Part shown: one piece after another, positions 16,542-22,798 of the stretch
How the letters are laid out: each line of letters opens with the position of its first letter
Numbering within the stretch: position 1 is the first letter of the stretch
NCBI GenBank assembly: GCA_049431025.1
Contig: JBMTCP010000009.1
Span: 4,228-68,227, forward strand
Direction: 5' to 3'
Source of the DNA: Bacteroidia bacterium
GTDB lineage: Bacteria > Bacteroidota > Bacteroidia > UBA7662
Length of the DNA: 64,000 nucleotides
Made by a program: the position numbers and the translations under genes
Notes under the pieces: generated by a model
Databases searched by the model: none
Seen by the model: only the letters and a program-made list of their open reading frames with translations
Told to the model about the DNA's origin: nothing

Positions 16542-17105
16542 ATGGCCCTTTTTCACCGCTTTAAAACCGCTGGTTTAGCCCACATTCTCCATTTATTCTC
16601 CGATAAAACCCGATTGACCCGGGTTCTTTTCTTGTACTTCGCTCTGTTTTGGACGACCCAAGCCCTCTCCCAATCCCCAAACACAGGGCAAAACGGCATG
16701 AGCAGCAGTTCGGAAACCGAGTTAAAAGAGGCACTCCGTCAAGCCAACAAGGAAATAACAAGCCTCCAAAAAGTTGTGCAAAACCAAAATGCGGCTTATC
16801 GCCGAAATGTTGACTCTCTTAATCGTCAAATAGCCGATAACCTTGCCAAACTGGGTCAAAACGAAAGGGCTCTCAACATCGCGCTCGAAAGTTTTGAGGC
16901 CAAGTACCGGGAACAAAACCAAACCATCCAGGAATTTCAAGACGGTTTGGCTTCCATCAAGAGCCGTCAAATGCTAACGATTATCGCCGTTTTGGTGGCG
17001 GCTGTCGTAGTCCTGTTTGGCGCCGTTCAGTGGGCCTTCCGCAAAGCCTCTACCCAGCAAACGAATTTTTGGAATGAATTCCAGGCCAGCCTTCTCAAAA
17101 AGTAA
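16542..17105 (+). CDS. Hypothetical protein: signal peptide, ~90-aa coiled coil, C-terminal TM helix
   Basis: VLFLYFALFWTTQALS-Q signal; heptad-rich helical middle; MLTIIAVLVAAVVVLFGAV TM. Confidence 0.75.
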   Translation: MALFHRFKTAGLAHILHLFSDKTRLTRVLFLYFALFWTTQALSQSPNTGQNGMSSSSETELKEALRQANKEITSLQKVVQNQNAAYRRNVDSLNRQIADNLAKLGQNERALNIALESFEAKYREQNQTIQEFQDGLASIKSRQMLTIIAVLVAAVVVLFGAVQWAFRKASTQQTNFWNEFQASLLKK

Positions 17106-17132
17106 TCCCTCCACCTTAATTCAAAAAAAACC

Positions 17133-17642
17133 ATGAGTCTTAACAACCAATCCACCCAAGGAAAATTGGATCCCATTACCTTTTTTTACGGTTTTGGCGC
17201 TGCTATCGTTTTGATTGCATCCATGTTCAAATTTGTAGGATGGGATTATGCTACTGAATTGTTCATTGTTGGCTTGGCGATCGAAGCGGTGGTCTTCTTG
17301 GTTTCTGCCTTTGAACGAACCAAGTCCGAAAAAGAATACGCTTGGGAGAATGTCTTTCCCCAATTGGTGGACAAGAACGCCCCATCCACCATGCCCGGTT
17401 CTGCAGCAGGGGCTAACGCGAATCTTGCTAACCCGGACTTGCAACAGAAATTCGATCAGCTGGGCCAACAAGTCCAACAAATGCAACAATCCCTCCAGGC
17501 CTTCAGCAGCCATTTGGACAAAAACGCGGGGATTGCTTCCCAATCCATGCAGTCCATGGAAAACATGAACCGCGAAATTGAAAAATACAACGATCACCTC
17601 AAGCGGCTCAACCAAAAATTCAGCGAGTTAAGCGGGCGCTAA
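17133..17642 (+). CDS. gldL: GldL/PorL-like motor subunit (short paralogue)
   Basis: FYGFGAAIVLIASMFKF...GLAIEAVVFLVSAFE...YAWENVFPQL matches the GldL N-terminal two-TM signature; coiled-coil tail. Confidence 0.85.
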   Translation: MSLNNQSTQGKLDPITFFYGFGAAIVLIASMFKFVGWDYATELFIVGLAIEAVVFLVSAFERTKSEKEYAWENVFPQLVDKNAPSTMPGSAAGANANLANPDLQQKFDQLGQQVQQMQQSLQAFSSHLDKNAGIASQSMQSMENMNREIEKYNDHLKRLNQKFSELSGR

Positions 17643-20450: not shown

Positions 20451-20470
20451 AAACGATTCAATTTCTTCCT

Positions 20471-22798
20471 ATGAACCACCGCTTTGTACGTGTTCTTTGG
20501 CCAAGTTTAGGCCTTTTGTTGGGACTGTTGTTTCCTCCTATCCTGCACGGCCAGGATTCTGACACCTTGATCCTCCGAGAAACCCTTACCGTTGGACCGA
20601 ACCAAACCTTGGATCTGAGCCGCTATACCCATGTCCTCTTGATGCCTGAAGCCTCCATTTGGGTTGAGGGGACCTTGATTATCCAACCAAGCAACGGACG
20701 CACCGTCCGCATTAGCTCCTTCTTTCGGGAACAATCCGGCAAGGGTATCGTCATTACCGGCAACAACCCCAAGGCGTCCATCCAATTGCGTGATGTTTGG
20801 TTTGATCGTTTGGATCAGGCGATTCATTTTGAGCCTTTTTGGAATCGTTCATCGGTCCAAATCGAAGAATTTAAGGTTTCGCGTTGTGGTCGTTTACAGC
20901 CCGCTGTTATGGTTCATCATCCGTTGCTCAATTTGGCCAGCGAGAAACTTGATTTTAAACTGAATAAGGGTCGTTTTTTTAATAATTACTCGGGTTTGTT
21001 TTTTGAAAAAGTCGGCGGGAACGGTACGGAATGGGAGCTCGAAAACCTCGCCTTTTACCACAATTACGAAAACAACGATGGTGATCCTTTGGGCATGTTG
21101 CACCTGGGCCTTTCGGAGCAACTCAAACCCGGTCGGGTGAAGGTTTCCGGTTTGTTCTTTGATCGGAATTTTACATCAACCGGTGCGGCCTACGCCCTCT
21201 CAACTTCAGGGCTTGCCAACCAGACCTTGGCGGTAAACGAAGTGGTAGCCGAAGGGGGATTGCAAGTCATGGACCGCAAGGTCAATCCCCGACTTCCTCA
21301 GCTCAGGATTCAAAATGCGTCGAATCCTTCGACAATGGCCCCACAATGCAACCCCAAAGTACTTTCCCACGACAAACGTCGTATTGTCCTTCATAACTAC
21401 CATCCGACTTGTGGTACGGTGCAGGTTTTCGGAGCAGGTGGGGTGAATTTGGATTATCTGCGTTCAGAATTCGGTGACACCTTGGAATTGGTTGTTACCG
21501 GGCGTGGTATTCCTTCGTATTTGGTTTTTGAAAACGATAACCTCAGGATTCTGCTCAAGCCCCTTCGCAAAACGCTCGGTGACGGTGACCCGGTTTCGGC
21601 CGATGATACCTTGGTGGGCCGCATCGAATACGAAACCATGGCCAACCAGCTAGCCAGCATGAACAACCTGGATCTGGAGAACGACACCCTGGTCCCCAAA
21701 AAGGTCCTGGCTCAATTGGTGAAACCCGGTTCATCGGATACCATCGTCGGCAAGGTGGAATTTCAATTGCTTCGCCAAAAGGTGGAAGCAGTTGAGGGGA
21801 GCGCCTCCCTGGTACTCAGACCGGTTTTTCCTAAAGAGGAGCTGAGCTTTTCAACCGGTTTGGCTTTTTATAACGGAGATCTCAAATACCAGTACGGGGT
21901 ACCGACCTTTTTGGATCGCAGTTGGAGTATTGCCTACGAAAAAAGAATCAAGCCTTTGCGGTCCATTCGGATTGAAGGGCATTTCACCCGAGTGGGAATG
22001 TTTGACCGCACGGCTGCCTTTGCTTTTGGGCGAATCAAGGAAACCGTTCTGGTGGATAACAATTTTCAGCGATATGCCGTCACAGACCAAAGTCAAGTGG
22101 CTTTCAGGACCCATATCTTCGGCTTGAGTTATAACCAAATCTACACCGCTCCTTTGGCTTTCCGTAACAAAACCAAATGGAGCCTTGATTACGGATGGGG
22201 CGCGGGCATCATACGTTTTGACCCCTACAGGGTTGTTTCCTATAACCGAGACAGGGCCATTAACCGGGATTCTGTTGCCTTAATTCCCTTGCGTACGGTG
22301 GGTACCGAAGGGCAGAATTACAAGCCAGGCCTCGTACTCAGCAGTCCCGTACGATTGGATGCTAACCTTTACGAATACGGACCCTACGCTATACTTTTGA
22401 ACGGTATGGGACGCCTATCCTACCGCAACAACGGTTTGCGATTCTTTGGTGAAGTCAAATGGAACCTTCCATTGACCGATTACCTGGATGATTTTGGGCC
22501 TGGGCAATTGTATGCCAACAATTACGATGCCTGGGCCAAAGCCAACGCCAACTTGGTCCTACCCGAAAACCCTACCGTGGTAAATGCCAGTACGGGTCAA
22601 GGCACACCCTACCGCTTGAATCAAATTTTTCGTAACATGCCCTCCAAACAGCGCAGAACCATGGGCTTTCTACCGGACTCCTACGTTCAGATTCATTTTG
22701 GCTTGAGTTACGACTTGCAGGAGATTCGCCGCGTCTATCGCGATGCCGATGTGCCCGGGCTTATTCGACGGATGCGGAGACCTCGTGGTCTGAACTAA
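20471..22798 (+). CDS. Secreted/outer-membrane protein: N-terminal beta-helix-like domain plus C-terminal DUF6089-like beta-barrel
   Basis: Signal peptide; TLTVGP...IWVEGTLII...ISS...GKGIVI beta-helix start; FYNGDL, RFDPY, LRTVGTEGQ, TDYLDD, DSY...GLSY barrel motifs. Confidence 0.65.
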   Translation: MNHRFVRVLWPSLGLLLGLLFPPILHGQDSDTLILRETLTVGPNQTLDLSRYTHVLLMPEASIWVEGTLIIQPSNGRTVRISSFFREQSGKGIVITGNNPKASIQLRDVWFDRLDQAIHFEPFWNRSSVQIEEFKVSRCGRLQPAVMVHHPLLNLASEKLDFKLNKGRFFNNYSGLFFEKVGGNGTEWELENLAFYHNYENNDGDPLGMLHLGLSEQLKPGRVKVSGLFFDRNFTSTGAAYALSTSGLANQTLAVNEVVAEGGLQVMDRKVNPRLPQLRIQNASNPSTMAPQCNPKVLSHDKRRIVLHNYHPTCGTVQVFGAGGVNLDYLRSEFGDTLELVVTGRGIPSYLVFENDNLRILLKPLRKTLGDGDPVSADDTLVGRIEYETMANQLASMNNLDLENDTLVPKKVLAQLVKPGSSDTIVGKVEFQLLRQKVEAVEGSASLVLRPVFPKEELSFSTGLAFYNGDLKYQYGVPTFLDRSWSIAYEKRIKPLRSIRIEGHFTRVGMFDRTAAFAFGRIKETVLVDNNFQRYAVTDQSQVAFRTHIFGLSYNQIYTAPLAFRNKTKWSLDYGWGAGIIRFDPYRVVSYNRDRAINRDSVALIPLRTVGTEGQNYKPGLVLSSPVRLDANLYEYGPYAILLNGMGRLSYRNNGLRFFGEVKWNLPLTDYLDDFGPGQLYANNYDAWAKANANLVLPENPTVVNASTGQGTPYRLNQIFRNMPSKQRRTMGFLPDSYVQIHFGLSYDLQEIRRVYRDADVPGLIRRMRRPRGLN

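Follow-up and report, generated by a model that had tools for sequence, protein, structure and literature searches.

The window analyzed here, a stretch of 64,000 nucleotides (nt) from a Bacteroidia bacterium of the UBA7662 lineage (GenBank assembly GCA_049431025.1, contig JBMTCP010000009.1, positions 4,228 to 68,227 of the forward strand), carries a cassette of five tightly packed genes at 16542-22798, which we name, from gene 1 to gene 5, P1, L', MA, MB and P5. This cassette probably encodes an accessory, self-contained and envelope-spanning proton motor of the GldLM type, which acts on an outer-membrane protein of its own and is separate from the canonical motor of the T9SS (type IX secretion system). 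To our knowledge, ion-driven rotary motors fall into very few families, of which GldLM is one, known only as the engine of the T9SS and of gliding. A second GldLM lineage that has an outer-membrane partner to itself would demonstrate that this chassis has been re-used for another task at the cell envelope, as have those of MotAB, ExbBD and TolQR. A preliminary description, made from the letters of the window, had proposed a second, repurposed GldLM-family motor driven by the proton-motive force (PMF) and coupled to a different outer-membrane client. The existence of a separate GldLM-type set stands, as does that of a predicted outer-membrane barrel protein always encoded after a GldM-like gene, whereas the use of PMF and the physical coupling to the barrel protein are put forward here as proposals.

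The cassette and its conservation

All five genes lie on the forward strand, with open reading frames (ORFs) at 16542-17105 (P1, 187 amino acids (aa)), 17133-17642 (L', 169 aa), 17644-19041 (MA, 465 aa), 19077-20450 (MB, 457 aa) and 20471-22798 (P5, 775 aa). The successive gaps of 27, 1, 35 and 20 nt reproduce those originally reported for five co-directional genes. As in the GldLM operon, the L gene directly precedes an M gene, here at a distance of 1 nt. The genome (1.8 Mb in 53 contigs, rated 100% complete) also encodes a complete gldK-gldL-gldM-gldN operon elsewhere, on contig C6, with all four genes above the cut-offs of their families. Its matches to GldK and GldN fall on the same contig, with the addition of a weak GldK-like match on C10, and those to GldL_N occur in two places only, namely the C6 operon and the cassette. 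Thus, the cassette is an addition to the canonical set rather than a divergent replacement of it: gldK and gldN, correctly noted as missing from the cluster, are found on C6, and L', MA and MB are not the sole gldL and gldM of the genome grouping with canonical orthologues, since a second set exists and MA and MB form clades of their own (see below).

A scan of species-representative genomes gave 33 related loci, which were used instead of word-indexed homologue searches, the latter being shallow (14, 7 and 4 proteins). P1, L', MA, MB and P5 follow one another in this order, on a single strand and with small gaps, in all 33 as far as their contigs reach: 20 have all five genes, and in the remaining 13 any gene not seen would fall past the end of the contig. 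The same order recurs in two further genomes (G285 and G312), and the arrangement, which might have been peculiar to this genome, is therefore a conserved one. The distant members of the family are 22-36% identical to the proteins of the window. Neither gldK nor gldN was found in the cassette, in the 33 related loci or in 12 extra loci. Likewise, no sixth conserved gene emerged from the flanks of the 33 loci, the commonest flanking family being present in seven of them at varying distance and strand. Measured against two close relatives, the ratio of nonsynonymous to synonymous substitution rates (dN/dS) is 0.04-0.12 for each of the five genes, with values of 0.04-0.05 for L' and 0.11-0.12 for P1; these ratios and the intact reading frames rule out decay or pseudogenization of the cassette. 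In one related locus (L047), MA is split into overlapping ORFs (8001-8774 and 8744-9400) while the other four genes are intact, which could reflect a frameshift or an assembly error. Two other possible readings of the cassette found no footing: its GC content of 0.46-0.49 lies too near the window's value of about 0.50 to mark it as an island, and PADLOC returned only sub-threshold coiled-coil noise for a defence system.

L', MA and MB as relatives of GldL and GldM

The identification of L' as a paralogue of GldL is well supported. It matches Pfam GldL_N (PF22827) with an E-value of 1.2e-20 and 73.8 bits (cut-off 24) and NCBIfam TIGR03513 with 81.1 bits (cut-off 68.3), the latter covering only positions 6-135 of the 247 in the model. 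Against the profile of canonical GldL, hhalign gives a probability of 99.6%, limited to residues 6-81. In this hairpin of two transmembrane (TM) helices, Y19, K33, E51 and E61, which are the equivalents of Y13, K27, E49 and E59 of Flavobacterium johnsoniae GldL, are each invariant in 29/29 family members. This agrees with the earlier account of a 169-aa GldL that retains the Tyr of an FYG motif, the Lys of MFK and the Glu of AIEA. The available text of bioRxiv 10.1101/2020.05.11.089193 reports from mutagenesis that Y13, K27 and E49 of F. johnsoniae GldL matter for motor function. In the available portions of the same source and of bioRxiv 10.1101/2022.01.28.478170, GldL Glu49 and GldM Tyr17 are described as invariant, GldL Tyr13 and GldM Arg9 as highly conserved and functionally important, and Glu49 as pairing at any time with Arg9 from one GldM copy of the two. 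PMC8986121 adds that, in F. johnsoniae GldL, secretion needs Glu49 and adhesin movement needs Glu59. The passing of the NCBIfam GldL/PorL equivalog cut-off by L' has a practical side, in that automatic annotation may count it as a T9SS gene, and genome-based inference of T9SS or gliding would then be misled.

In contrast to L', MA and MB by themselves match no Pfam or NCBIfam model, including the GldM domains and TIGR03517. They are also scarcely recognizable as relatives of each other (BLASTP E 0.47), and a BLASTP comparison of MA, MB and P5 with the canonical GldK, GldL, GldM and GldN of this genome gave nothing significant (best E 0.028), so that pairwise searching would by itself have dismissed any kinship with GldM. 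Profiles built from 29-30 sequences each for MA and MB, taken from the related loci, and from 15 sequences for canonical GldM nevertheless align end to end in hhalign: MA matches GldM at 98.4% (E 1e-14; residues 16-462 versus 11-524), MB matches it at 98.8% (E 4.4e-17; residues 9-457 versus 8-527), and the MA and MB families match each other at 99.0% (E 3.6e-18). The control comparison of the MA and MB profiles with GldN was non-significant (E 0.2-0.3). The match of MA to GldM is decisive because family profiles were used on both sides; a 13-sequence alignment of MA against a single canonical GldM gave a weak result (13%, E 0.0022). Weak matches to Pfam GldM_4th were further seen in 7 of 13 MA relatives (best E 4.5e-4), and a search of PDB sequences with the MA and P5 profiles returned filamin-type immunoglobulin (Ig) noise or nothing.

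In the AlphaFold model of MA (pLDDT 77.6), residues 9-31 form a TM helix and residues 34-195 the helical D1 domain, alongside three beta domains. The top Foldseek matches of this model in the PDB are the periplasmic domain of PorM (7cmg, E 5.4e-16) and GldM (6ey4, E 2.6e-13), and it also matches the C-terminal fragments of PorM in 6ey5 and 6ey6, with TM-scores on the target of 0.39-0.61. MB was folded within the prediction of the MA+MB complex, with a pLDDT of at least 75. Taken as profile alignments, these comparisons lend good support to MA and MB being full-length, remote homologues of GldM. The two unlike GldM-like proteins of the preliminary description are thus upheld, and so is the expectation that they should model as GldM folds, given that the model of MA finds its best matches in PorM and GldM.

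Of the two key residues of the GldM helix, Arg9 and Tyr17, MB has both equivalents, Arg10 and Tyr18, each in 29/29 sequences, and MA has only that of Tyr17, Tyr22, in 30/30. When MA and MB were folded together, the interface score ipSAE was 0.65 (0.64, 0.67 and 0.65 in the individual runs) as against 0.00 for the best control; the mark applied to this score is reached by 58/80 solved complexes and 2/110 mismatched pairs. The contacts agreed to at least 61% between the runs, the pLDDT of the partners was at least 75, and the predicted interface comprises the N-terminal TM helices, the D1 helices, which contact each other reciprocally, and the last domain, D4. The case for an MA:MB heterodimer rests mainly on genetics, because the two paralogues are always adjacent, always retained together and complementary in residue content.

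P1, P5 and the proposed machine

The product of gene 1, introduced earlier as a coiled-coil membrane protein, retains that character in a 28-sequence alignment and hydropathy analysis. A signal-peptide-like N-terminus is followed by a Pro-free, helical, coiled-coil-like stretch of about 90-100 residues with a strongly conserved motif of the QAQNERAxNLALDEF type, a single C-terminal TM helix at 144-162 and a short conserved basic tail. Judged by these features, P1 would be a bitopic inner-membrane protein, with its bulk in the periplasm, a C-terminal anchor and a cytoplasmic tail. It belongs to no named family, the Pfam and NCBIfam searches having given only sub-threshold coiled-coil noise, and its nearest Atlas clusters consist of unnamed Bacteroidota proteins. 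P1 is found only in the five-gene form of the cassette.

P5, which had been described as a beta-helix/barrel protein, keeps this designation in both the AlphaFold model (pLDDT 69.5, pTM 0.48) and the Foldseek search. The modeled plan consists of a signal peptide, a beta-helix-like region (~30-290), an Ig-like domain (~296-361), a low-confidence linker with short helices (366-450) and a barrel (~456-748). Foldseek recovered the barrels of OmpA, OmpX, Ail and NspA (E 3.6e-5 to 6e-4; TM-scores on the target of 0.38-0.72 over seven matches). While P5 has no direct Pfam match, and DUF6089 was matched in 0/24 of its family members, the P5 profile detects, through positions ~385-678, stand-alone proteins of 270-340 aa in 262 of the 301 sampled Bacteroidia genomes. 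All eight of these that were scanned match Pfam DUF6089 (PF19573; E 1e-12 to 4e-36) plus OMP_b-brl. Against representative proteins, the profile reached 114 clusters at E 1e-30 or better, and the nearest Atlas cluster of P5, a lead only, is 80% DUF6089 (score 0.89). P5 is hence predicted to be an outer-membrane barrel protein related to the DUF6089 and OmpA-type barrels, which it resembles in barrel profile and fold, and it differs from stand-alone DUF6089 proteins by an extra N-terminal part of ~430 residues, made up of the beta-helix, the Ig-like domain and the linker. It would thereby offer a first functional context for part of this large, uncharacterized family of Bacteroidota barrels.

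Stand-alone DUF6089-type barrel genes often occur in tandem threes (e.g., L113 (G205:C57), L116 (G128:C9) and L118 (G189:C2)), and in L085 a DUF6089 barrel is fused to an OmpA C-terminal domain just downstream of a three-gene module of the kind described further below. The start of the beta-helix has its own distribution: giant proteins of 2000-7600 aa (P0061, P0066, P0071 and ~70 more) contain 5-19 repeats matching positions ~20-100 of the P5 profile. This N-terminal unit may be a module that P5 shares with very large surface proteins.

The succession of signal peptide, beta-helix, linker with short helices and C-terminal barrel is also that of an autotransporter, and the full-length autotransporters EstA (3kvn, rank 22) and AaaA (9oqa, rank 43) are among the weaker Foldseek matches of P5. 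These points, together with the resemblance of its beta-helix start to the repeated unit of the giant proteins, could be taken to mean that the cassette serves solely to export or assemble P5, as a device in which the beta-helix is a surface passenger that travels through or beside its own barrel with energy supplied by the motor. We consider this improbable: the best matches are to small, eight-stranded barrels of the OmpA/OmpX/Ail type, and such barrels are too narrow for the passage of a polypeptide; a motor for one substrate would be costly; and a periplasmic beta-helix offers a simpler route for a shaft of MA and MB to meet P5. Both termini of small barrels with an even number of strands are periplasmic, and on this ground the beta-helix of P5 would lie on the periplasmic side. 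A GldM-like gene is always directly upstream of P5, including in all 12 extra loci.

We now return to the reading of the cassette as an accessory motor with an outer-membrane protein of its own, for which the following mechanism can be envisaged. L' would form the ring in the inner membrane, a pentamer by analogy, bearing the proton-coupling Glu. The single N-terminal helices of MA and MB would sit inside this ring as a heterodimer, and their four periplasmic domains would constitute a shaft reaching the outer membrane. The axle would be asymmetric by build, since only MB has the Arg for an ion pair with the Glu of the ring. At its tip, the shaft would act on P5, which, as a beta-helix protein anchored in the outer membrane, would stand in for the GldK/GldN ring, and P1 would be an extra coiled-coil component of the inner membrane specific to the form with two M proteins. 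The invariance of the buried charged and aromatic residues over a deep divergence strongly suggests that PMF is used as in GldLM, and the strict gene linkage and the absence of GldK and GldN suggest that the shaft acts on P5; the stoichiometry, the PMF-driven movement, the contact of MA/MB with P5 and the effect of the work on P5 are proposals. By analogy, our preferred guess for the output is mechanical work on the outer-membrane protein in the manner of TonB and Tol.

Set beside the GldL5:GldM2 and PorL5:PorM2 motors of F. johnsoniae and Porphyromonas gingivalis, the cassette shares the GldL_N hairpin with its Tyr, Lys, Glu and second Glu, M proteins built from a single TM helix, the helical D1 domain and three beta domains, and the availability of an Arg-Glu pair, in this case between MB and L'. 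It departs from them in having two dissimilar M proteins for one, in the presence of P1 and P5 in place of GldK and GldN, and in the fall of MA, MB, P1 and P5 below all Pfam and NCBIfam thresholds. Among other motors, AglR5:AglQ:AglS of Myxococcus xanthus offers a parallel as an ion motor of the 5:2 type whose two central subunits come from different genes; the available part of PMC11761067 has an AglQS heterodimer predicted where TolR is a homodimer. The Agl motor is, however, of the TolQR/ExbBD/MotAB family, which is unrelated to GldLM; it lacks a periplasm-spanning shaft of Ig domains and is coupled to the Glt complex rather than to a single barrel protein. A second parallel lies in the TonB-ExbBD and TolQRA-Pal systems. 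These combine a 5:2 proton motor in the inner membrane with an element that spans the periplasm and with a particular protein of the outer membrane that is acted on. The overall logic of the cassette is the same, though as an analogy only: no relationship of sequence or fold to the TonB/Tol systems was found, and P1 has the opposite topology to TonB and TolA, being anchored at its C-terminus rather than its N-terminus.

Papers describing a further module of the GldLM type, heterodimeric GldM or DUF6089 were not found in the full-text literature, which was covered without most subscription journals and supplements, and the same holds there for the three-gene L'-M'-P5 module treated below; literature matches to 'copies of GldL' refer to the copies of the subunit within the complex and not to paralogues. 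It is conceivable, and we propose this more tentatively than the presence of an accessory motor as such, that the cassette represents an undescribed class of trans-envelope machine, in which a GldL-type ring turns or levers a shaft on one dedicated outer-membrane protein, without a GldK/GldN ring and independently of the T9SS, by means of an obligate MA:MB pair with a single Arg-bearing helix. If so, nature would have made in it a 'one-legged' 5:1:1 version of 5:2 rotary motors, and it would provide a direct test of whether the power stroke needs both central subunits; a duplicated shaft protein with the key Arg in one copy only amounts to a natural experiment on how proton flow and movement are coupled in 5:2 motors.

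Several observations weigh against the reading of the cassette as an accessory motor. At position 14, which corresponds to GldM Arg9, MA has Thr, Asn or Ser in 30/30 sequences and Arg in 0/30, as opposed to Arg in 15/15 canonical GldM proteins; a basic residue lies two positions further on in 30/30, usually with another one turn deeper than the Arg position (26/30). Lacking this Arg in MA, the device may work unlike GldLM or may not rotate. In L', the residue corresponding to GldL His30, which is where TM helix 1 ends towards the periplasm, is Gly or Asp in 29/29 sequences, whereas His is present in 15/15 canonical GldL proteins, and the H30A substitution in F. johnsoniae GldL slows adhesin movement. 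The short GldLs of the three-gene form likewise have Gly or Asp here. L' ends in ...KRLNQKFSELSGR and, as already remarked in the preliminary description, is without the C-terminal tail of the LNxVYGxMLxAM type; the 305-aa canonical GldL of the same genome carries this tail, and residues 113-167 of L' match 223-291 of that protein only weakly (E 0.011). The favorable MA+MB prediction may stem from the model's memory of the solved GldM and PorM homodimers, and the model of P5 is of moderate confidence, also as regards the number of strands and the membrane side of the beta-helix. With respect to distribution, 4 of 11 congeners yielded MA, which is absent from five congeners that are 92-98% complete; as a single query, it also gave 0/29 among more distant relatives. 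Its patchy occurrence in the genus marks the cassette as accessory and dispensable. Finally, some loci have genes for T9SS cargo in the vicinity of the cassette (Por_Secre_tail, with E 6e-12 to 1.5e-8 for three tested proteins), which could be chance or a tie to type IX secretion.

The loss of canonical motor features, namely His30, the C-terminal tail of GldL and Arg9 in MA, could also indicate that the GldL/GldM fold is re-used without PMF-driven movement, in a static tether or sensor that spans the envelope and might, for instance, brace the two membranes against each other. P1, as a simple coiled-coil membrane protein of a kind seen in structural assemblies, would be at home in such a structure. 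We hold this to be quite unlikely, for the invariance of the Glu, Tyr and Lys of L' and of the Arg and Tyr of MB across relatives with 22-36% identity would be unexpected in a passive tether.

The cargo genes bear on a different alternative, in which L', MA and MB are alternative motor units, either substituted or added, for the canonical T9SS/gliding machine, comparable to the alternative stator sets of some flagella, that dock on the same GldK/GldN ring with P1 and P5 as adaptors. Such a role would suit the presence of canonical GldM in every carrier tested (this genome and 5/5 others) and the domain plan of MA and MB, which is that of GldM down to a GldM_4th-like last domain. It is at odds with the persistent absence of gldK and gldN from within or beside the cassette, with the constant inclusion of an outer-membrane protein of its own, and with the divergence of MA and MB, which is such that the GldM models of Pfam and NCBIfam miss both. 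The adjacency of cargo genes may itself be fortuitous, such genes being common in Bacteroidota. On balance, we judge this alternative unlikely, and prefer an accessory motor that is separate from the T9SS. Large proteins with the C-terminal sorting domain of the T9SS are encoded ~120-185 nt upstream of gene 1 in L032, L033, L043 and L045, and also occur beside the cassette in L023, L027 and others. One carrier genome has two canonical-type GldM matches above cut-off on one strand, ~1.2 kb apart (G103:C80:7100-11374).

Related modules, flanks and transcription

GldL_N matches are present in 291 of the 301 sampled Bacteroidia genomes, many of which have more than one. The five-gene form accounts for three of the 301 (the present genome, G285 and G312), and a three-gene form, composed of a short GldL, one GldM-like protein (M') and a P5-like protein, for ten (G126, G358, G330, G241, G272, G208, G237, G353, G170 and G218). 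The genes of the latter are in the same order, co-directional and tightly packed in 10/10 loci, and the P1 profile has no match in them. Their short GldL scores higher with the L' profile than with that of canonical GldL, and M', at 441-570 aa, keeps the Arg. A variant of this form, L124 (G218:C90:30000-40000), comprises an L' of 308 aa, an M' of 441 aa and a P5-like protein of 449 aa whose match to the P5 profile was confined to the N-terminal part. The three-gene module is akin to the cassette in having a short GldL and a P5-like protein directly after the GldM-like gene, and differs from it in its single M', which falls beside canonical GldM. The tree of 85 GldM-like sequences (FastTree), unrooted apart from the midpoint, has canonical GldM, M', MA and MB each monophyletic, and the split between {canonical, M'} and {MA, MB} has a support of 1.0. 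With the proviso that long-branch effects are possible, this topology is consistent with M having been duplicated in the same lineage that acquired P1.

A third kind of GldL_N-like ORF, of 160-325 aa and 22-44 bits, with two hairpin matches per ORF in some cases, was seen at L087 (G358:C1), L088 (G126:C11), L089 (G036:C40) and L090 (G177:C107). There was no GldM-like or P5-like neighbor in these four fetched loci, and the proteins are possibly orphan membrane proteins with the GldL fold.

The promoter box claimed for the cassette was located on the forward strand at 16518-16525 (TATTTTTG), 16 nt 5' of the P1 ATG, where it was read directly in the AT-rich spacer and is the single match to TAnnTTTG within 16392-16545. 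We take this motif to be the -7 element of Bacteroidota promoters, and the box is a putative -7 element of that type for the cassette. Among 26 related loci, the motif lies 23-31 nt 5' of the called start of gene 1 in nine and inside over-extended ORF calls in three; no motif was found in the other 14. As for transcription, two metatranscriptome runs from two studies yielded short contigs of low depth, with 0-2 differences, on genes 1-5, some of which bridge genes 1 and 2 and genes 2 and 3. X1 and X2 leave most of the stretch uncovered, and X3-X5 have next to none of the words; the uncovered parts were left out of account. These contigs, which may include carried-over DNA, give a weak hint that the cassette is transcribed and co-transcribed.

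Upstream, the cassette is bordered by a tRNA-Ser (GGA) gene on the reverse strand (16253-16340), and downstream by a convergent asparaginase-like gene that overlaps its last 38 nt. Contigs from the RNA libraries pile up on the tRNA gene and diverge on both sides of it, as expected of a conserved tRNA common to many organisms. Upstream neighbors at 13105-16042 resemble, judging from the translations, a membrane protein of the polysaccharide-unit flippase type, a methyltransferase and a glycosyltransferase of the family-2 type, none of which is kept beside the cassette in other loci. Between the stop codon of the glycosyltransferase-like ORF and the tRNA-Ser gene, a 21-nt unit (cgggattgtcctcgctgtgct) occurs in three perfect head-to-tail copies at 16048-16110.

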